A stretch of DNA of 60,794 nt, filler included, from Dimargaris cristalligena (Eukaryota), in the NCBI GenBank assembly GCA_003614675.1. It is 13 parts of 13 records of this genome, joined end to end, with 100 filler letters (N's around TTAATTAATTAA, not from the genome) between each part and the next. Parts side by side here need not be neighbours in the genome. Positions count along the whole stretch, not along the records: positions 18,863 to 23,466 come from ML003751.1; 12 more parts are not named here. The stretch is one strand, 5' to 3'. Both the position numbers and the translations under genes were made by a program. Positions 17,678 through 36,668 of this stretch are shown piece after piece. Position 1 is the first letter of the stretch. Each line of letters starts with the position of its first letter. The notes beneath the pieces were generated by a model that was not told the origin of the DNA, did not search any database, and saw only the letters and a program-made list of their open reading frames with translations.

Positions 17678-18862
17678 TATATACACTTTGTAATGATAAT
17701 TATAAATCTACTGATTGCTACGTTTACTGTCGTAATCTTTGGACTGGAGCTATACTCCATTTCTAGCATCTATTAGAGTAATTCGATAGTATATGGTACC
17801 TCAGTTAGCCTACTACAATGACCAGCCAGGTCAACTGACTCTCGACAGAAGTGCCAAGTTTTGATCTGATATATGACGATTTTGAGACCCGCTGCAGAAC
17901 AATAATTTAGGTGTATCTCCTGGCGCGCAAATCCATGCCAGGGGGTCAGGAGTTTTACTGCTGTTCCCACCATGCCAATGTTCGACTGCACTTTCTTTTC
18001 ACTAGTTCTTGCCTACATATAAAATTCCGAGGCCAACCTACTAAGCTGAAAAACATGTAATCCGGTTTAATACACTCTATTGGTTGTATAACCTACCCGC
18101 TACAGCTCCTTACTAGACATTTTATAGCTCTGTTTTTCGGTATCCCTTTTGGTCATGACTGCTCTCCCTATACTTCACTCGGTGCCCAGTTCTACACTTT
18201 GGACTACTGAAGCACACAATGTACCTCATTAGGTACCCTATTTGGTTGGGCCAGGGCTATTTCCGAAGCACCCAGGCCGGGTTTGAGAGACAGGCCAAGC
18301 ATTTTGAGCCCCATGCGCTGGATGTGTCACTAGTTGGGAAAGTGGCAGTGGTTACTGGTAAGTCATTGCCCATTACATTCCCCAGTGGGTAAATGGCAAA
18401 GTGTTTTGCTGCCTACTTTTTCCAGGGCACATTCCGTATAGACTGGTGGGAGTACCGCAAGGATAACAAGTACTATACAGAGCCACTTATTGCGCTAGTT
18501 GGGTTGTTTAGCCCATTGCTCTAAAACTCTAAGTCTTATTTTGTAAATGTTGTCATTGGACATAGGAGCAAACAGTGGCCTGGGAAAGGCCACTGCCCTA
18601 TCCTTACTAACCAAAGGTAAGTCGTATACAGTAGGCAATGGTGTGTTATTATCACCCATGATCTTCCTTGAGTTGGCCAAAAAACTACTCAAGGAATTAC
18701 TTCCGTGGTGGGCAGACTGTCCCTTATGCTATACCCATCCCGACCATATAGTCCTCATTTCANNNNNNNNNNNNNNNNNNNNNNNNNNNNNNNNNNNNNN
18801 NNNNNNTTAATTAATTAANNNNNNNNNNNNNNNNNNNNNNNNNNNNNNNNNNNNNNNNNNNN

Positions 18863-18904
18863 TTCGAAGTTATTATGTTATGGGTTCGAGTCCCATAGGA
18901 TGTT
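18863..18904 (+). tRNA. trnR: Mitochondrial-type tRNA-Arg(TCG), 3' half cut by contig edge
   Basis: TTCGAA anticodon loop remnant, T arm ATGGG-TTCGAGT-CCCAT. Confidence 0.6.
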
Positions 18905-18920
18905 AAAAAAAAATTATTTA

Positions 18921-18997
18921 AGTCTTGGAAGGCCCTACGGGCCTGGAGCATGAGACTGAAAATCTTGAAATAATGGTTTAATTCCATTATTTTTCTA
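18921..18997 (+). pseudogene. trnF: Degenerate mitochondrial tRNA-Phe(GAA)
   Basis: GAGCA TGAGA-CTGAAAA-TCTTG, T arm AATGG-TTTAATT-CCATT; D region replaced by GC hairpin AGGCCCTACGGGCCT; no acceptor pairing. Confidence 0.7.
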
Positions 18998-19199
18998 AAT
19001 ATTTTAACATTTCTACATATTTTAATATTTAATAACTTTGTTGTTTATTTTTTTTTTAGTGAAAAATAAATTTTAATACTTCTCCTAGGATATTTTTAAA
19101 TTGATATCTTCATGCGGTGAGCCATGTAAGTATCTTATCTTTCGAATATAAGATACATGTACATGTGTTTTTTAAAAACGCACATGTGCGTGTTTCGAT

Positions 19200-20362
19200 T
19201 GGTTATTGGATTATTTAAAGAACGTAATTTATATTTAATTTGTTATTGAATTATATTTTATTTATTTTCGATTATCGGATTATTTAAAAAATCGAAAAAG
19301 ATATACATATCTTTTTTAAAAACAACACATATATGTGTTGCTTTCGATATTTTTTATATTTTGGAATCGTATTTCATTTTTAATTTTATTATATTTTTTT
19401 TTTCTTTCGTTAAATTCATATTATTTTATATTATTTAATACAGAGATAAGTTTATATAATGATTGTGAGATTTATTTTTTTTCTATTTTTTTTATTTCGT
19501 GATTTAGACATTCACGTTCTTATTCTACAATGGATTCAGGAATAGATTTAGAAATGGAGTCGGAAAAGGAATGGGTATTAAATTTTAATCTCAATATTCA
19601 ATGGTTCGCTTTGGATAAAAAGGGGTTTATTTTTAACTCCCAAGCTTCTCTTGAAAAAAAATTTGTTGTTTATATATATTAATTAAACTCTAACGAGGAA
19701 GTATATGTTGGTTCTTCTAACAATTTTTATAGTAAATTTCATAAATATCGAACTCTCATCAAGAGTGGTAGTATTGATTGTTCTATCTTCTATTATTCTG
19801 TTCGAAAATATGGATAGAATAATTTTAAATTTGCCCGAGGTATCTTGGAATCAAAGATGCAGCTATAGCTGCATCTTTAAAATTTATTAAAAATTAATTT
19901 CGATAAATTTAGAATAACAACCAAGGGGTTGTTATAATAAGAGTGAAAATTTCACAAAAATAAAAAAAGAAATTCGAATTTCTCGCTTATAGCGTAAAAT
20001 TTAAAAATAATTATTATTATTTTCGTCTTAAAAGAGAACAATTTTACTTAGATTTATTTTTACCTTCTTTAAATGTTAATAAAATTGCTAGATCTTCATT
20101 AGGATAAAAATATAGTGAAGAGAGTAAGGAAAAAATGAGTCTCGTTTTAAAAAGTGAAAAAAATCATATGTTTGGTTAAATTCGTTCTGAGGAAATCAAA
20201 TTAAAATTAAGTGAAGTTAATGGTACAAAAATTTATTTATTCGCATTTTTTTTATTATAAAAAAAAATGTTTTTAATACAAATTTTTCCTTTCGTTAAAA
20301 AAGCTGCTAAATTTTTTAAATCTATAAATGTTACAATTATTAAATATGTTAAATCAGGTTGA
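19200..20362 (+). pseudogene. GIY-YIG homing endonuclease pseudogene 1 (GIY-YIG + NUMOD3 + NUMOD1)
   Basis: Hand translation: VVYIY*LNSNEEVYVGSSNN..FYYSVRKYG*NNFKF..REQFYLDLFLPSLNVNKIARSSLG*KYSEESKEKMS..KNHMFG..SEEIKLKLS..IQIFPFVKKAAKFF; stops and hairpin insertions; 5' limit approximate. Confidence 0.88.
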
Positions 20363-20638
20363 AAAAAAATATTTTTTTTTCAGGAGATCTATACAATATT
20401 TTTTTCCATCAGTAAAAAAAGGGAATTATTATCTTAATTTAACATCTTTTATTTACGTATGCATTTTAATTCATTTTTAAGATACATAATTCTTTTTTAT
20501 TTCTTTTTTTATTACTTCCTTTCCAAAATCCCTCTCCCCTCCCCTTTGGAGTAAGCTTTCATTATGATTTTTAATATTACTTCTTAATATAGCAAATTTT
20601 TTTTTATATAAAAAAAAAAAATTGTTTTTTCGATTTTT

Positions 20639-20709
20639 GCTTCGGTAGCTTAACGGTAAAGCATAGGGCTGAAAACCTTGTGAAAGTGGTTCGATTCCAC
20701 TCTGAAGCA
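20639..20709 (+). tRNA. trnF: Mitochondrial-type tRNA-Phe(GAA), intact
   Basis: Acceptor GCTTCGG/CTGAAGC, anticodon arm TAGGG-CTGAAAA-CCTTG, T arm AGTGG-TTCGATT-CCACT. Confidence 0.95.
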
Positions 20710-20714
20710 TTTTT

Positions 20715-20751
20715 GGATAGATGGTAGAGTCCGGTTTATTGTATCTAACTT
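20715..20751 (+). pseudogene. trnS: 5' half of a tRNA-Ser, ending at the anticodon loop
   Basis: GGATAGATGGTAGAGTCCGGTTTATTGTATCTAACTT aligns with the first 37 nt of the intact trnS at 22855. Confidence 0.75.
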
Positions 20752-21323
20752 TTTATTTATGCTTATAGCTATATAATTATTTAAGTGTCGAAAGCAATAT
20801 ATTTATGTGTTGTTTTTAAAATTTCGAATTTTGTGTTAACAAAATTTAAATTTGTTTTACAACAAATTCGATAAATAAGACCCGAAGGGTTTGTTTACAT
20901 GTATAAATAATTTATCGTTGACTTCCTACTTCCTTTCCCATTCTTTTACTTCGCTATTTATTCTATTTTTAAATGAATTTTCTTAACAATTTTATTATCA
21001 ATTAAAAATTGACTTTAAGATTCAAAAAAAAAATTTTTTTATTTTAAATTATTTATAGTGTATTCTTGTAATTATAACAGGTAGATTTATTTAATTAATT
21101 TTATAATCTCTAATTTTTTTAAGTTAAAATTCTTTGGGAGTTAAATAAAAAATCATAAGTCATGTAATGATTTTTTTTTCTTTTAAGTTTAATCTGGAAT
21201 TTTAAACTTGGATGCCAAATAGTTAATACCTTTACGTGGTCGATTATATAAATAAGTTAAAATGTAATAATACTTTAGCATAAAGTTACTATAACTGAAA
21301 CTAAATTTGATAGTAATGTATAA

Positions 21324-22610
21324 TTGTTAAACTTAAATTTTTTTTTTATGTTGGCTATCGGATTATTTAAAAAAGAAATATCTAAAAGATATTTCTTTTG
21401 GAATCATATAATACCTGTATTGGAATCAACACTTTTAGTATTTTTTTCTTGTATACTTTTATTTAATTATAATTTTATGCTTGAGATAAATTTATATAAT
21501 GATTTATTTTCTCTTCTTTTCATTTCTTGATTTGGGCATTCGTATTCTACTACTTCAGAGTCTCAATCTTCTGATTCGAACCTGAACCTTCGGTAGAATA
21601 TTCAATGGTTTGCTTTAGATAAAAATGGATTTATCAGAGATTCTAATAAGTCTCTTTAAAATAAAGCGGCTGTATATATTTATCAATTTCTTTTAAATGA
21701 TGATAAAATTTCGAAATAAGACATATGTATATGTGTTTTTTAAATATAATATATTTATATTATATTCGATAAGGTCTGCTTCGAATTTATTGCGAAGATT
21801 TGATCAACATAGAAGTTGAGTAAATAAAGAAGATTCTACTTGTCCGAAACTCTGTACTATAGTACGAGAATTTGGATGGAAACAATCGAAGATTGTTCCG
21901 AGATGTCTTTAAATCGAAGATGCAACTATAGCTGCATCTTTTAAATTTATTAAAAATAAATTTCGATTGATTTTGATTTACATTCAGAGGAAAAGATTAA
22001 TACAAATAAAGATATTATATTATTTATATTTATTCTTACCTTCTCTAAATGTTAATTAAATCGCTGGTTCAATGCTTGGTCCAAATTTAAATAAATATTT
22101 AAATTTTATTAAAATAAAATTCGAAATATTCCCTTGAGTCTAGAATAAAAAGGAGTGAGAATTTGAGAGGTGAGAATCATAGTATGTTTAGTAAAACTCA
22201 CTTAGAGGAATCCAAATTAAAAATGAGTATAGCTAAAGGTTTCACTATTTATCTTTATTCTTTGGATTTAAATTTAATTCAAATTTTTCTATCTTTAAAA
22301 GCTGCCGTTCAACACTTTGGTAGCAATAGTTGAACAATTCTTTAACATACCAAATTCGGTGAAAAAAAATTTAATTTAATAAGATTTAAATTTCACATCT
22401 TTAGATGTTTTATTTAAAATTTTATTAACATAAAATTTGATTTTATCCTTGAAGCCCCTTGAATCTGGATTTTAGCTTATTTTAAAGGTCAGACAGCTTT
22501 GCTGTCTCGCCTTAACTATTTATGTTTATTCATTAGATCAAAAATTACTCTATACTTTTCCTACTTTAGCAAAGGCAACAGAGCATTTTAATGTAAGTAC
22601 TCTTATTAGC
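21324..22610 (+). pseudogene. GIY-YIG homing endonuclease pseudogene 2, paralog of copy 1, with two NUMOD1-like repeats
   Basis: NIQWFALDKNGFI..AAVYIYQFL..SASNLLRRFDQHR..VREFGWK..LPSLNVN*IAGSMLG..GENHSMFSKTHLEESKLKMSIAKG..TIYLYSLD..TIYVYSLDQKLLYTFPTLAKATEHFNVS. Confidence 0.88.
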
Positions 22611-22854
22611 AGCACCTGCGGTGCTTCTCGCTAGATTTAATAATGTTTTTCAAAATAAATTTATTTTCGAAAGACACATGTATATGTGTTTTTTAAAAAC
22701 AACACATATATGTGTTGTTTTCGATTTATAAGCTTTAGATGGAAATTCTTAAAATCCTCAAAACTCATAGGTTCTTTTTTTCATTGACCCTTGAATTTTT
22801 GAGTGGTTTATAACTTTTTTTGATTTTTGGAATTGTATTATTTATTTCCCTCTT

Positions 22855-22941
22855 GGATAGATGACAGAGCTAGGTTTATTGTGTCTTACTTGAAATAAGA
22901 TGATGTTTTTACATCCGGGAGTTCGAATCTCCCTCTATCCG
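22855..22941 (+). tRNA. trnS: Mitochondrial-type tRNA-Ser(TGA), intact
   Basis: Acceptor GGATAGA/TCTATCC, anticodon arm TCTTA-CTTGAAA-TAAGA, long variable arm, GGGAG-TTCGAAT-CTCCC. Confidence 0.95.
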
Positions 22942-23159
22942 TTATTTATTTAATATAGTTATTCTTCCAGGTACATACATAAGTATAATAAAAATAAATA
23001 AATTGAAAAAAAAAATATATATTAAGTAATTTAATTCTGGTACTATAATGGAATTTGTGAGTTATGCTATACATATAAAATTTTATAAAAAAAAAATTCG
23101 AAAACAACACATTTATGTGTTGTTTTTAAAATAAATAATTATATTTATTTCGATTTTGA

Positions 23160-23205
23160 CCTCTTTAGGTAAATACATGCGGGAGTTCAAATCTCCCTCG
23201 GGCTT
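23160..23205 (+). pseudogene. 3' relic of a tRNA, possibly Leu(TAG)
   Basis: T arm GGGAG-TTCAAAT-CTCCC with upstream TTAGG; no matching 5' half seen. Confidence 0.4.
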
Positions 23206-23396
23206 CCGGCATCTGAAATAAATTTAAATCTATTATCTAATTAATTTTTATAATTTAATATTTTTATTTAAATTTTTATAAAAGTTTTATATTATATCTT
23301 TTTAAAAAATATCTCCATATAGATGTTTTTTTATTTTTATTTTATAATTTTTTATAAATTTTTAAATATGTATTTTTTAATTTTTTTAAGAGGTAT

Positions 23397-23466
23397 GACC
23401 TCTTCATCTAGTGGTTAGGATGGTATCTTTTCACGATACATACGCTGGTTCAAATCCAGTAGGGGT
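23397..23466 (+). tRNA. trnE: Mitochondrial-type tRNA-Glu(TTC), last bases cut by contig edge
   Basis: GACCTCT..AGGGGT acceptor, anticodon arm GTATC-TTTTCAC-GATAC, GCTGG-TTCAAAT-CCAGT. Confidence 0.92.
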
Positions 23467-23571
23467 NNNNNNNNNNNNNNNNNNNNNNNNNNNNNNNNNN
23501 NNNNNNNNNNTTAATTAATTAANNNNNNNNNNNNNNNNNNNNNNNNNNNNNNNNNNNNNNNNNNNNGCTCA

Positions 23572-34094: not shown

Positions 34095-36668
34095 TTATTT
34101 CTCCTCTTTGTCTTCCTTCAAACAATAACCTTTCCAATATGAACTACGATATTTGTCTCTCTCAACAAATCTACTTTCGTCCAAAAGTTCCTTCATTTTT
34201 TCGAGAAACTTTACTTCGCCGATTTTTGTCTTTTGATTCCGTTCAGATTCATACTTTGTCATGTATCGCTTGTAAGCTTCCACTTTGCTCACAGTATTTG
34301 TCAAATCCTGTGTCTTCTCAATAGACATTTCCACGAATTCTTTTACTGTGTCCTGCTCGTTAATCAAACTTTCTTTCCACTTTTTGCATTCTTTTGGGAT
34401 GTGTCGAAAATTTGTGATCCAATAGTTTTTCAGTCCTTCCAAAGCCCACATCAAAAAATAAGGTCTCCATTGATCGAGCTTCTCGTCGATTTCCTCAGCT
34501 CGATACGTGTAATTTTCATGTTGGTGTTTAAGAAACTGTTCCTCATCTTTGTAAAATCGTGAACGGTGATGGATTATGAGCATTCTGTCCAGAAGAGCGC
34601 TATCTGTGAAATCAAACTGCGGAAAGTTCGCATCGTTGAATAAGAGCAACATTTTTGTTCCCCAAGTGAACTTGGCTATTTTGTCTGAACGAAAGTGTCG
34701 GCCTTCGAACATACTGTTGCCTCCATTTCGATCTTTCAGTTCCTGGTTGTCGAGCATTCTTTTGGGATCCAATTCTTCAAAGCAAGCAACACGAATCCCT
34801 TGATATGCAATCATTCCTGCACTGTGTGAATCCACTGTCTCATTGTGGTTGTCTGTTTTGTAAATAAGTGCGTTTGAACCTTTGCGTGCGTAATCACCTA
34901 ACGCCTTGTTAACGAGTTTCGCTATTGTGCTTTTGCCGTTGTGACCCTTTCTTTTGTCCGTAAACATGGCAAAGATCTTTGCTGGATGGTCACCCAACAA
35001 GCAATAGCCAAGATATCGCTGAACTATTTCCCTTTCATCATCAACGGGATAGATTTGTCGAATGAATGTTTGAAATTCTGTCTTCAAATTTTCGTCGATT
35101 TCCGATGGATTTTCTGGATAACTGTAACCCACAGTTTTCGATATCATATCTCCGGAGGTTCCTTTTCGAAAACTGCAAGTTTTCAAATCAATGACTCCAT
35201 TGTCCAATCCTAGTAAACGAACATTCGCATCGAGATCTGTTGCGAATTTTTCATTATATAGTACGAATCCAACTGATTTAGTTATATTTTCCAAATTTTT
35301 CTGTCGTTTGAGATATCTTAACCCCTTCTTGACGTTTAAGTATTGATCTTTCGTTGCTTGCTTATCTTTTTTGGGACCATCTTTCATCTCAAGAAAATGC
35401 ATTCTTTGACTGAGATAAGTACCCATTTGTTCCAATATTCCGACAAGAAGGGAGTCCAGGCAATTTCCAACTTTTTCTAAGCTGACCTCTGACCATTTCC
35501 CGTTTTCGAATCCAAAGAATTGGCGATTCTTTGTCCAAAACAGGACGCCCCGATAAATTTTCCCGAATAGACTAGCATAATCCCGATCTGCTTCGGGGCA
35601 ATCGATGATTTTTTTCAACGTGCTCAATTCTTTCATTTCCATCATTTCAAAATGGCATTTATCGGAATAGTTTTTCACCATAAACGTCTCCGGGACTATC
35701 TGAACACAGTACCAATTGTTGGAATCGTGTTTGTGTTCGAGGCAGATTTTACAATTCACATCTCGACAAGCATCGAAATTAAAGCCATGTTCTGTGTGGT
35801 TGATCATTTTCAATTTTTCAAAGCCAAATTGCTCAACCAATCGTTTCTCCACTGTATTCCAATCGGTGACAAGATTCGATAAACTCATCGGAGGGACGTT
35901 AATGTTAAGATAGTTGATGTAATTATTTGTTTGGTTCATCTCTTTTTCATTGAATTGCATTGCCATTGCGGATTCATCACCGATTGTTTCAATATGGCAT
36001 GTCTTTATCCTTTTGTTTGATTCACCATAATGTGTTTTCTTAACTATTGACACCGCGGGAGAGGGTTTCTGGGCTACAACCAGCTCCTTTTCGTCTCCAT
36101 ACATGTATTGAGCGAGAAAAGCGCGTTTTTCAGATTGGTGAGTGATTGCACTGAGGGGTCTTTTGTCGAAATCGAACTTGTGCGCATTGATGCACCCCAA
36201 GCATTGATTTTTTCCATAAGGAGCGGTGTCAAGTTCCGCAGGTTTTTCATTTGAAAAAGTGTTCACGATGTGTTTTTTTATGTCTGCTACTTTTGCTTTG
36301 TAACCTTTGGTGTAAGCTCGCAGACTTATTACGTGATATGCATTTTTTTTTCCCTCGTCTTTGATCTTGTATCCCGAACGTTCAGCATATGCCGTTTCCG
36401 CGCCAGGAAGAAGCTTTTCTATAACTTGTTGGAATTTTAAAAGCTGCTCTTGAATCATTTCCTCCGTGGCTTCTTTTTCACATTTCACATCCCAATCAAA
36501 GTACGGCCTGACTATTGGATTCTCTTCCAAAAATTCATTGTACATGAACCCCACTCGTTTCTCAGAGATTTTTTCGAATTCTTTTGCTGTCAGGATAACT
36601 CGATTTTTGTCGCGTAGCCCATGTAACTGTTTGATAAACGTCATTCTCTGTTCTTTGTGATCATCCAT
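34095..36668 (-). CDS. D5-like primase-helicase (AEP + Zn cluster + SF3 helicase), viral type
   Basis: PYFDWD, DTAPYGKNQ, CKICLEHKHDSNN, LDANVRLLGLDNGVIDL (D5_N), Walker A GHNGKST, Walker B ACFEE, motif C LLFND; intronless 857 aa. Confidence 0.92.
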   Translation of the reverse strand: MDDHKEQRMTFIKQLHGLRDKNRVILTAKEFEKISEKRVGFMYNEFLEENPIVRPYFDWDVKCEKEATEEMIQEQLLKFQQVIEKLLPGAETAYAERSGYKIKDEGKKNAYHVISLRAYTKGYKAKVADIKKHIVNTFSNEKPAELDTAPYGKNQCLGCINAHKFDFDKRPLSAITHQSEKRAFLAQYMYGDEKELVVAQKPSPAVSIVKKTHYGESNKRIKTCHIETIGDESAMAMQFNEKEMNQTNNYINYLNINVPPMSLSNLVTDWNTVEKRLVEQFGFEKLKMINHTEHGFNFDACRDVNCKICLEHKHDSNNWYCVQIVPETFMVKNYSDKCHFEMMEMKELSTLKKIIDCPEADRDYASLFGKIYRGVLFWTKNRQFFGFENGKWSEVSLEKVGNCLDSLLVGILEQMGTYLSQRMHFLEMKDGPKKDKQATKDQYLNVKKGLRYLKRQKNLENITKSVGFVLYNEKFATDLDANVRLLGLDNGVIDLKTCSFRKGTSGDMISKTVGYSYPENPSEIDENLKTEFQTFIRQIYPVDDEREIVQRYLGYCLLGDHPAKIFAMFTDKRKGHNGKSTIAKLVNKALGDYARKGSNALIYKTDNHNETVDSHSAGMIAYQGIRVACFEELDPKRMLDNQELKDRNGGNSMFEGRHFRSDKIAKFTWGTKMLLLFNDANFPQFDFTDSALLDRMLIIHHRSRFYKDEEQFLKHQHENYTYRAEEIDEKLDQWRPYFLMWALEGLKNYWITNFRHIPKECKKWKESLINEQDTVKEFVEMSIEKTQDLTNTVSKVEAYKRYMTKYESERNQKTKIGEVKFLEKMKELLDESRFVERDKYRSSYWKGYCLKEDKEEK

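Follow-up and report, generated by a model that had tools for sequence, protein, structure and literature searches.

How does a homing endonuclease gene (HEG) come to lie between two copies of one tRNA gene, and how does this arrangement arise twice in a row? This question is raised by one contig within the window, the stretch of 60,794 nucleotides from Dimargaris cristalligena (assembly GCA_003614675.1) that was analyzed here. The window consists of 13 unrelated contigs of ~4.6 kb joined by N44, a stop-codon linker, and N44, and the adjacent pieces have no physical linkage to the contig at positions 18863-23466, to which the whole cassette finding is confined. The initial annotation had described two tandem mitochondrial cassettes, each with a dead tRNA, a GIY-YIG endonuclease gene, and a replacement tRNA, and had proposed a family of elements that insert at tRNA genes, supply a substitute, and have retargeted between tRNAs.

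The contig recurs in nine runs from three studies at 84% or more of the sampled words and is most likely an AT-rich piece of an organelle genome, namely that of a fungal mitochondrion; a mitochondrial origin is what we infer for it. The aligned parts of the endonucleases contain three TGA codons, and as none of the three stands opposite a W, the genetic code is not readable from this contig.

tRNA genes, tRNA remnants, and double-hairpin elements

tRNAs were detected with ARAGORN and with the Rfam tRNA model at a cut-off of 29 bits. Together with within-contig alignment, tblastn, and Pfam, these searches recovered all features of the initial annotation at their positions (Table 1), including a pair of paralogous I-TevI-like GIY-YIG genes that stand free and are each flanked by one tRNA gene in two versions, dead and intact. 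Dead and intact copies are all on the same strand as the HEG remnant that they bracket. Both contig ends, as defined by the N runs, fall within tRNAs. Around both HEGs, five tRNA genes or parts of such genes and a further three fragments occupy the 4.6-kb contig, and the HEGs lie inside a tRNA gene cluster, which is a SegB-like setting. As the contig is dense in tRNAs, HEG remnants, and hairpin elements, adjacency alone carries little statistical weight.

Table 1. Features of the contig at 18863-23466, with positions counted along the window.
Feature	Position	Strand	Evidence and remarks
3' part of a putative tRNA-X	18863-18904	+	Cut by contig start; Rfam positions 31-71, 16.9 bits, E 9.2 (weak), flagged 5'-truncated
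ψtrnF, decayed whole-gene copy of trnF(GAA)	18921-18997	+	Rfam 18927-18996, 23.5 bits, below the cut-off of 29
Two double-hairpin elements	19140-19200 and 19290-19349	.	Spacer upstream of pseudogene 1; folds, TCGA-bounded segments, family alignment
GIY-YIG/NUMOD3 homing-endonuclease pseudogene 1	19410-20434	+	tblastn with P0007 residues 26-267, 3 frames
Double-hairpin element	19848-19905	.	Inside pseudogene 1, at the site of a pseudogene 2 copy
Intact trnF(GAA)	20639-20709	+	Rfam 64.3 bits; ARAGORN 20638-20710
ψtrnS 5' half, trnS positions 1-37	20715-20751	+	30/37 identical to trnS, E 1.3e-6
Double-hairpin element(s)	20786-20873	.	35 nt after the ψtrnS 5' half; folds, family alignment
GIY-YIG/NUMOD3/NUMOD1 homing-endonuclease pseudogene 2	21480-22665	+	tblastn with P0007 residues 20 to ~320-340
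Double-hairpin elements interrupting pseudogene 2	21709-21771 and 21912-21968	.	Folds, family alignment
Double-hairpin element	22665-22726	.	3' end of pseudogene 2; folds, family alignment
Intact trnS(UGA), class II, long variable arm	22855-22941	+	Rfam 48.6 bits; ARAGORN 22854-22942
Double-hairpin element	23096-23155	.	18 nt before the trnS-like 3' fragment; folds, family alignment
trnS-like fragment, 3' side of variable arm and T arm, positions 56-81	23174-23199	+	24/26 identical to trnS, E 3.7e-6
trnE(UUC)	23397-23466	+	2 nt missing at contig end; Rfam 46.8 bits, flagged 3'-truncated; ARAGORN 23396-23469

ψtrnF retains the GAA anticodon loop in the Rfam tRNA model and was not called by ARAGORN; it has a GC hairpin where the D-loop should be and a decayed 3' acceptor strand. 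Its 40-nt core matches trnF positions 22-61 at 30 of 40 nucleotides (75%, E 2.6e-5 within the contig). In the ψtrnS half, the match to trnS stops after the first anticodon base, and the seven differences are distributed over the D-stem (two), the D-loop (three), the junction of D and anticodon arms (one), and the anticodon stem (one). Both D-stem differences preserve pairing via G-U in the Rfam structure, which, with two positions, is weak evidence for a once-functional variant over random decay. The two remnants are unlike in kind, one being a whole gene and the other a 5' half. Spacing is tight, with ψtrnF beginning 16 nt after tRNA-X and ψtrnS 5 nt after trnF. The trnS-like fragment adjoins a hairpin element and no HEG, and an 8-mer identical to the trnE 5' end stands just before it. 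As controls, we used trnE, the 5'-cut tRNA, and a nuclear-type trnI from another piece of the window, whose best non-self matches had E values of 0.05-0.7. Only trnF and trnS, and none of the control tRNAs, had significant extra copies within the contig.

The ~60-bp double-hairpin element is present in at least eight copies in this contig, in spacers as well as inside the endonuclease reading frames. In an alignment of eight copies, TC and TTCGA are invariant at the ends and a T/A tract occupies the center; rich in AT, the elements end in TCGAA and TTCGAT and fold with -9 to -22 kcal/mol. The tetranucleotide TCGA occurs 30 times in the contig, compared to 9.4 expected occurrences. Double-hairpin elements occur in the mitochondrial DNA of Allomyces and chytrids, and GC clusters in that of yeast. 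Judged by form, our elements resemble those of Allomyces and chytrids in being short, multi-copy paired hairpins with conserved ends in spacers and ORFs, whereas their AT-rich composition sets them apart from the yeast GC clusters. Among the matches listed in a literature search for "double hairpin elements", there was no fungal work.

Two decayed endonucleases of one subfamily

Both pseudogenes align along the intact 354-residue homologue P0007 (tblastn E values of 8.5e-46 and 8e-24 for pseudogenes 1 and 2). In these alignments, pseudogene 1 has at least six in-frame stops, and pseudogene 2 consists of at least four frame segments with several in-frame stops. DNA-binding modules are present in both, with NUMOD3 scores of 34.7 bits in pseudogene 1 and 30.7 bits in pseudogene 2 (Pfam cut-off 20.4) and two C-terminal helix-turn-helix modules in pseudogene 2, whose NUMOD1 score of 17 bits is below the cut-off (34.6 bits in P0007). 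The GIY-YIG domain itself (PF01541) scores 16.7 bits in pseudogene 1 and 21.2 bits in P0007, both below the cut-off of 22.6; the GIY and YIG motifs are legible in the sequence, and the pseudogenes have strong homology to proteins with precomputed PF01541 hits. There is no ORF of more than 120 codons under table 4, and neither unit has an intact frame for an active enzyme, as each is spread over at least three frames and broken by stops and hairpin-element insertions. Both endonuclease genes are dead.

Stop-codon reassignment was considered and rejected. In-frame TAA and TAG codons stand opposite Q, W, L, Y/F, and K in the homologues and are therefore mutations rather than recoding, and W at conserved endonuclease sites is encoded by TGG. 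We also rejected the idea that the hydrophobic leader upstream of both HEGs is the remnant of a host protein gene. The leader gave no Pfam hit and matches the N-terminus of the HEG P0162, which makes it part of the HEG; the N-terminal extension of pseudogene 1, from 19410 onward, is such a match. In the search for group I introns that the initial annotation had called for, no group I or group II model matched either strand of 18863-23466 at E<=10 (Rfam), although the Rfam group I model is of limited sensitivity and misses many mitochondrial introns. No group I core with host-gene exons around an ORF was found.

The two units are collinear over ~1.19 kb, upstream leader included, and align over this length at 60% DNA identity; in the MAFFT alignment, 639 of 1004 positions (64%) are identical. 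Unit 1 is identical to P0009 at 43/74, to P0010 at 43/79, and to P0007 at 45/89 residues, compared to 36/90 between unit 1 and unit 2. In a tree of the C-terminal DNA-binding part (91 columns), unit 1 groups with P0007, P0009, and P0010 (support 97/97) and unit 2 with the cox2-fused P0214 (92/88), the distance between the units being inflated by pseudogene decay. As judged by this tree, the HEGs are of separate ancestry, belong to different subclades, and are not each other's closest relatives. Their ~64% identity and different subclades argue against a recent tandem duplication.

The element at 19848-19905 and its counterpart at 21910-21968 are identical at 52 of 58 positions (90%), in comparison to 64% for the surrounding block. 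The intact homologues P0007, P0006, and P0161 lack this element; if it was inherited at this shared site, the common ancestor of both HEGs would already have been broken.

Members of the family are fused to atp6 (P0173, with PF00119) and to cox2 (several, with PF02790), which indicates that this GIY-YIG subfamily makes known gene-end hybrids, and many homologues carry the source label "group I intron endonuclease". The sequence into which P0009 continues is similar to the 3' flank of unit 1 (a match judged by eye), and this read-through suggests that the unit-1 locus is common to another genome.

A metagenome scan recovered the P0007 contig and 32 more distant loci, but none of the contigs of the closest relatives, P0009, P0010, P0006, and P0161. 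Among the retrieved stretches of the more distant loci, five contained called tRNAs, and in three of these a tRNA stands beside the HEG: a free-standing relative lies between trnS(uga) and trnP at L002 and just upstream of trnM at L004 and L005. None of these five has a partial tRNA duplicate of more than 22 nt. No tRNA lies on the 1.8-kb contig of the nearest intact homologue (L001). With P0009 as the query, viral contigs gave a weak, irrelevant match and prokaryote genomes none, and an exact 22-nt pattern from the trnF 3' end had no match in viral or prokaryote contigs. When P0007 was compared to 50,697 phage records by tblastn, 42 records matched, all below 60% identity; the best of these, with 25-38% identity, were generic I-TevI-like genes, and a SegB annotation was absent from the best 25 of the 42.

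Origin of the duplicated tRNA genes

We consider it an even chance that the locus is a fossil of endonuclease-driven tRNA gene duplication, with two HEG invasions followed by decay. The ancestral state would have been a compact organelle tRNA cluster in the order tRNA-X, F, S, and E, which two different members of one free-standing I-TevI-like GIY-YIG subfamily may have invaded long ago. Each invasion would have been completed by repair of a double-strand break, with homologous joining at the tRNA and illegitimate joining at the opposite end, and the HEG would have arrived together with a copy, or the 5' part, of the neighboring tRNA gene. The resident copy would have been left upstream as a remnant, as the whole trnF in one case and trnS positions 1-37 in the other. 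Later, nonsense mutations, frameshifts, and insertions of the double-hairpin element would have ruined the HEGs, and selection would have retained one working trnF, trnS, and trnE each. The positions of ψtrnF and ψtrnS are those expected in a compact ancestral X-F-S cluster, which counts for HEG-driven duplication. Points against it are the unlike remnants, a gene order that is the reverse of that in the known hybrids, the hairpin element at a shared site of the HEGs, the trnS-like fragment away from any HEG, the lack of partial tRNA duplicates at the five distant loci, and the L001 contig devoid of tRNAs. The anatomy fits the model of insertion at a tRNA and supply of a substitute; a causal role of the HEGs in the duplications, and the assignment of the tRNA copies as old or new, are what we infer from it. 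Of the insertion mode that the initial annotation had proposed for a whole family, the position of each ORF between tRNA copies held, but a whole ψtrnF and a halved ψtrnS leave no common insertion point.

In this scenario, the locus would be for tRNA genes what the mobile-ORF gene hybrids are for atp6, atp9, cox2, and nad3. The precedents named by the initial annotation do exist. Mitochondrial mobile ORFs carry substitute gene ends and have formed hybrids in Allomyces (atp6), Glomus (atp6, atp9, cox2, and nad3), Rhizopus (atp9), and Mortierella (cox2), with the inserted copy of the atp6 type joined to the gene body, followed by the ORF and the native remnant downstream (PMC3630166). As in these hybrids, a free-standing endonuclease ORF has here a functional copy of host-gene sequence on one side and a displaced, diverged copy on the other, so that duplicated parts of one gene flank it, and the subfamily includes atp6-fused and cox2-fused members. 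The differences are that the hosts are tRNAs rather than protein genes, that the ORFs are dead, and that the order is the reverse (remnant, ORF, intact copy), so that the likeness to the Allomyces atp6 type, with its substitute upstream and native remnant downstream, does not extend to gene order. I-TevI-like group I intron endonucleases of mitochondria share the domain set of GIY-YIG, NUMOD3, and NUMOD1/HTH, whereas the genes analyzed here stand free between tRNAs, with no detectable intron core or host exons. A shallow literature check found no description of a mitochondrial GIY-YIG gene linked to tRNA duplication, and the consulted parts of PMC5626475 and PMC9744193 describe nothing comparable.

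The tRNA fragments could instead be by-products of recombination or slippage in repeat-rich spacers, for example between double-hairpin copies, with HEGs that merely colonized the same spacers and decayed. The hairpin elements 35 nt and 18 nt from the trnS fragments make such HEG-independent recombination a real alternative, and the abundance of these elements and of TCGA, the fragment at 23174-23199, which lies away from any HEG and looks chimeric with its trnE-like 8-mer, the lack of tRNA duplicates at the five distant loci, and the contig ends inside tRNAs, which hint at further repeated tRNA sequence, all point in the same direction. Against this, each HEG remnant is bracketed by copies of one tRNA, the only clear extras are those of these two tRNAs, and for this enzyme class, partial gene duplications linked to HEGs are on record in mitochondria, both by the family fusions and in the literature (PMC3630166). 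On balance, spacer recombination is possible but rather unlikely. That one ancestral cassette of tRNA and HEG underwent a tandem duplication, through unequal crossing-over or SegB-like amplification, and later diverged with a change of tRNA identity, would explain the collinearity of the units and their hairpin element at one shared site, and phage SegB is reported to make tandem repeats of tRNA and truncated segB (PMC13096335). However, the units bear different tRNAs (F and S), their HEGs are merely ~64% identical, and unit 1 groups with the HEGs of other genomes and not with unit 2, which renders this origin improbable.

It is highly improbable that the ORFs were encoded in group I introns, such as an intron in the trnS anticodon loop as in bacterial or plastid tRNAs. 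The ψtrnS half does end directly after the first anticodon base, where the group I intron of tRNA-Leu(UAA) classically sits, and the source labels of many relatives point the same way, but no intron model matched within the sensitivity stated above, exons of no other host gene are present, and the complete trnS downstream makes splicing unneeded. Equally remote is the idea that the contig is an assembly chimera or mitochondrial DNA that was copied into the nucleus and is decaying there. A short stand-alone contig with broken ORFs might raise this suspicion, but the recurrence of the contig in nine runs from three studies speaks against it, and three intact tRNAs at 47-64 bits next to destroyed ORFs indicate that the tRNAs are under selective constraint, as expected for a functional organelle genome and not for a dead nuclear copy.

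tRNA genes as possible hosts of mobile endonucleases

Beyond the preferred reading of two invasions followed by decay, the units might be fossils of a mitochondrial GIY-YIG lineage that targeted tRNA genes as SegB does and spread as substitute-tRNA cassettes, a reading that we regard as unlikely. SegB recognizes the conserved TψC motif of tRNAs (PMC2330249) and co-transfers neighboring tRNA genes, with tandem repeats of tRNA and segB being possible (PMC2330249; PMC13096335). Like SegB of phages T4 and T6, the HEGs described here are free-standing GIY-YIG genes embedded among tRNA genes; unlike phage SegB, the units are old, carry different tRNAs, and reside in an organelle genome, and the best phage matches of P0007 are generic I-TevI-like genes. 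Such a lineage may have recognized a conserved tRNA feature and hence be present next to different tRNAs, its cassette would bring a substitute tRNA or half of one while the resident copy decays, and the differing DNA-binding modules of the two HEGs would then reflect retargeting. As both endonucleases are dead, their former cutting of tRNA genes is putative.

This locus, a decayed relic on one short contig, is a lead for comparative mitogenomics and not a demonstrated system. Endonuclease-driven gene duplication has so far been known for protein genes, and here the hosts look like tRNA genes. In mitochondrial protein genes, the replacement of gene ends in connection with endonucleases is established, as is tRNA-linked homing for phage SegB; mitochondrial tRNA genes as the duplicated or replaced host would join these two phenomena. 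tRNA duplicates and pseudo-tRNAs in fungal mitogenomes complicate annotation and gene-order phylogenies, and the process proposed here is a possible mechanism for their scattered occurrence. If the reading of the units as tRNA-targeting cassettes is true, homing endonucleases would be one force behind the turnover and duplication of tRNA genes in organelle genomes.

Decayed and intact tRNA copies around two endonuclease pseudogenes

On a contig of 4,604 bp and 24% GC (piece 5 of the window, 18863-23466), each of two pseudogenes of homing-endonuclease genes (HEGs), called unit 1 and unit 2, lies between a decayed upstream copy and an intact downstream copy of one tRNA gene, trnF around unit 1 and trnS around unit 2. 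The positions and descriptions that the initial annotation had given for these tRNA copies were borne out by ARAGORN, Rfam, and comparison within the contig. ψtrnF has kept a GAA anticodon loop, and its core is identical to trnF at 30 of 40 positions (E 2.6e-5, within the contig), but it scores under the Rfam tRNA cut-off of 29 bits; its D-loop is swapped for a small GC hairpin, and the pairing of the 3' acceptor strand is lost. The likeness of the ψtrnS half to trnS breaks off past the first anticodon base. A third, trnS-like fragment lies 230 nt downstream of intact trnS, with an 8-mer equal to the trnE 5' end just before it. The controls (trnE, the nuclear-type trnI of piece 3, and the tRNA cut by the contig start) had no non-self match better than E 0.05.

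Features of the tRNA-endonuclease contig and of two other pieces
Feature	Position	Details
tRNA cut by contig start	18863-18904	3' part
ψtrnF	18927-18996	tRNA model, 23.5 bits
Unit 1, HEG pseudogene	19410-20434 (+)
trnF(GAA), intact	20639-20709	ARAGORN + Rfam, 64.3 bits
ψtrnS 5' half	20715-20751	5 bases past trnF; 30/37 vs trnS positions 1-37, E 1.3e-6
Unit 2, HEG pseudogene	21480-22665 (+)
trnS(UGA), intact	22855-22941	ARAGORN + Rfam, 48.6 bits
trnS-like fragment	23174-23199	24/26 vs trnS positions 56-81
trnE(UUC)	23397-23466	ARAGORN + Rfam, 46.8 bits
Double-hairpin element, example	22665-22726
Double-hairpin elements, shared site	19848-19905, 21910-21968	units 1 and 2
Small GC hairpins	18933-18945, 19917-19932, 20887-20900, 22490-22508, 22610-22628	4-nt loops
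tRNA-Ile, anticodon AAT	13082-13158	piece 3 (38% GC), 65 bits
857-aa ORF	34095-36668 (-)	piece 8, D5_N, 33.4 bits

Both endonuclease genes are dead. No ORF of more than 120 aa was found in the region with translation table 4, and fragments translated across the stops, with X in their place, gave NUMOD3 matches (34.7 and 30.7 bits) and sub-threshold GIY-YIG (16.7 bits) and NUMOD1 (17 bits) matches. An exhaustive HMMER search returned 1,399 relatives at E<=0.001. The top one, P0007 (354 aa, 54% identity), is an intact ORF on the 1,777-bp metagenome contig L001. In tblastn, unit 1 is split over three frames along P0007 residues 26-267 and has at least six in-frame stops; unit 2, along residues 20 to about 320-340, is split into at least four frame segments and has stops as well. 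These stops sit opposite Q, W, L, F/Y, and K of P0007 and the homologues P0006 and P0009; a conserved W, a TGG codon, is mutated to TAG once, and none of the three TGA codons stands opposite W. We rejected a changed genetic code as the source of the stops, which arose by ordinary nonsense mutation of AT-rich DNA; the code of the organelle is not readable from this contig alone. A hydrophobic leader common to both units had no Pfam match. It matches the N-terminus of the HEG protein P0162 and is thus part of the HEG, so that its reading as a piece of a host gene was rejected.

The window is made of 13 pieces of about 4.6 kb set apart by runs of N and is not a single molecule; its 12 linker sites (4619-56262, e.g. 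18763-18862) consist of N44, a 12-base six-frame stop linker, and N44. Their GC content ranges from 23% to 58%, so that more than one replicon, or even more than one organism, may be represented. The genomic context is limited to this contig, which starts within a tRNA and stops 2 nt short of the trnE end. The remaining pieces carry eukaryotic genes, including a Brr6-like domain, DUF3712, a calcineurin-like phosphatase, and a D5_N primase-like ORF, some of which we take to be fungal gene types. The D5_N primase-helicase-like domain, on an unrelated contig, is of a type found in large DNA viruses and some mobile elements, and the tRNA-Ile gene is a typical eukaryotic nuclear one.

Relationship of the two units and their relatives

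The units can be aligned over about 1.19 kb at 60-64% DNA identity, and their tRNA-proximal flanks gave no convincing alignment. Within the 93 alignment columns that hold a residue in both units (C-terminal part), unit 1 shares 43/74 residues with P0009, 43/79 with P0010, and 45/89 with P0007, but only 36/90 with unit 2, a distance that the decay of both pseudogenes inflates. Unit 2 is nearest to P0162 (40/90), P0008 (36/81), and P0214 (38/90). A maximum-likelihood tree built on little data (20 rows, 91 columns) groups unit 1 with P0007, P0009, and P0010 (support 97/97) and unit 2 with the cox2-fused P0214 (92/88). DNA identity to L001 is 85% over 126 nt for unit 1 and 82% over 116 nt for unit 2. 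Judged by these identities and the tree, a recent plain tandem duplication is unlikely, and the units look to be distinct members of a single subfamily, each with its own kind of DNA-binding modules.

A set of 115 homologues of P0007 at E<=1e-10 includes several fusions to COX2 (PF02790) and a single fusion to ATP6 (PF00119); those with names are from Fusarium, Stagonosporopsis, Drechslerella, and Coleochaete. The subfamily therefore makes known gene-end hybrids. In the set of 33 metagenome loci, the free-standing HEG of L002 is intact and lies between trnS(uga) and trnP, adjoining rnl, and L004 and L005 have HEG remnants immediately upstream of trnM. In the stretch taken around each locus, none of the five loci with tRNAs called (L002, L004, L005, L006, L015; the tRNAs adjoin the HEG in the first three) had a partial tRNA duplicate of more than 22 nt. 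No tRNA was found on L001, where the flanks of P0007 (1-540, 1606-1777) are GC-richer, structured, and non-coding, with no Rfam intron match. P0009, from another metagenome, continues into sequence like the unit 1 3' flank (judged partly by eye), which suggests that the unit 1 locus has an ortholog in another genome. On L005 (1-6284), three or more distinct GIY-YIG/NUMOD ORF fragments stand one after another ahead of trnM; decayed endonuclease copies thus line up next to tRNAs in other organelle genomes too.

Hairpin elements

TCGA occurs 30 times on the contig versus 9.4 expected, a threefold excess. From eight aligned copies, we defined a double-hairpin element of about 55-60 bp that runs from a TCGAA end through hairpin 1, a T/A tract, and hairpin 2 to a TTCGAT end. 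At least eight copies lie within 19140-23155, in the spacers and the interior of both HEGs, and there are degenerate extras; one copy lies 35 nt past the ψtrnS half and one 18 nt ahead of the trnS-like 3' fragment. Both HEGs have an element of one subtype at a homologous codon position, and none occurs there in P0007, P0006, and P0161. These two copies agree at 52/58 positions (90%), versus 639/1004 (64%) across the whole homologous block, which may reflect site preference, homogenisation or conversion, or inheritance from an already broken common ancestor. Small GC-containing hairpins are also scattered over the AT-rich contig, among them the one in place of the ψtrnF D-loop and another that breaks the second HTH module of pseudogene 2; they could represent another class of small mobile element.

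Origin of the arrangement

Duplication caused by the HEGs is the best-supported reading, with about an even chance of being right. Free-standing GIY-YIG HEGs would have invaded a compact tRNA cluster twice, long ago, and each time break repair would have been homologous within or beside the tRNA and illegitimate on the opposite side. The resident copy (whole trnF; trnS 1-37) would then have stayed upstream and the working copy downstream, and the working trnS may combine an incoming 5' half with the 3' half of the resident gene. Against this reading count the differing remnants, a whole trnF and a trnS half, and the third tRNA fragment, which adjoins a hairpin element without any HEG. The latter favors the main rival, HEG-independent recombination among hairpin repeats, which we regard as possible though doubtful. 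A further point against duplication by the HEGs is that, on so crowded a contig, the adjacency of HEGs and tRNA copies has little statistical force. An ancient tandem duplication of the cassette is improbable in view of the low DNA identity of the units and their different tree partners.

That the ORFs are intron-encoded is very improbable. The ψtrnS break coincides with what we take to be the classic tRNA-Leu intron site, but the scan for group I cores suggested in the initial annotation, extended to group II models, gave no match on either strand at E<=10, no exons beyond the tRNAs were found on the contig, and the complete trnS downstream makes an intron unneeded. An artefact is just as improbable; the contig sequence is reproducible, with at least 84% of its words (84-91%) present in nine runs from three studies under two organism codes; further runs have 9%.

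The precedents named in the initial annotation exist. One paper (PMC3630166) describes mobile-ORF hybrids of atp6, atp9, cox2, and nad3, citing Allomyces, Rhizopus, and Mortierella cases; these parallel the present layout, but here remnant and substitute stand in reverse order, which also counts against the HEG-caused reading. The tRNA-linked GIY-YIG endonuclease SegB of phage is a second parallel: it recognises the TψC motif of tRNAs and takes neighbouring tRNA genes along (PMC2330249), can give rise to tRNA-segB repeats in tandem, and shows enrichment next to tRNAs of many isotypes (PMC13096335).

That these elements form a family that targets tRNA genes and switches between them is a hypothesis resting on two fossils. 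The parts are of known kinds, namely I-TevI-like HEG pseudogenes, pseudo-tRNAs, and hairpin repeats. For their combination in an organelle, where a HEG has a dead copy of a tRNA on one side and a live copy on the other, and this occurs at two different tRNAs, a shallow full-text literature search found no description.
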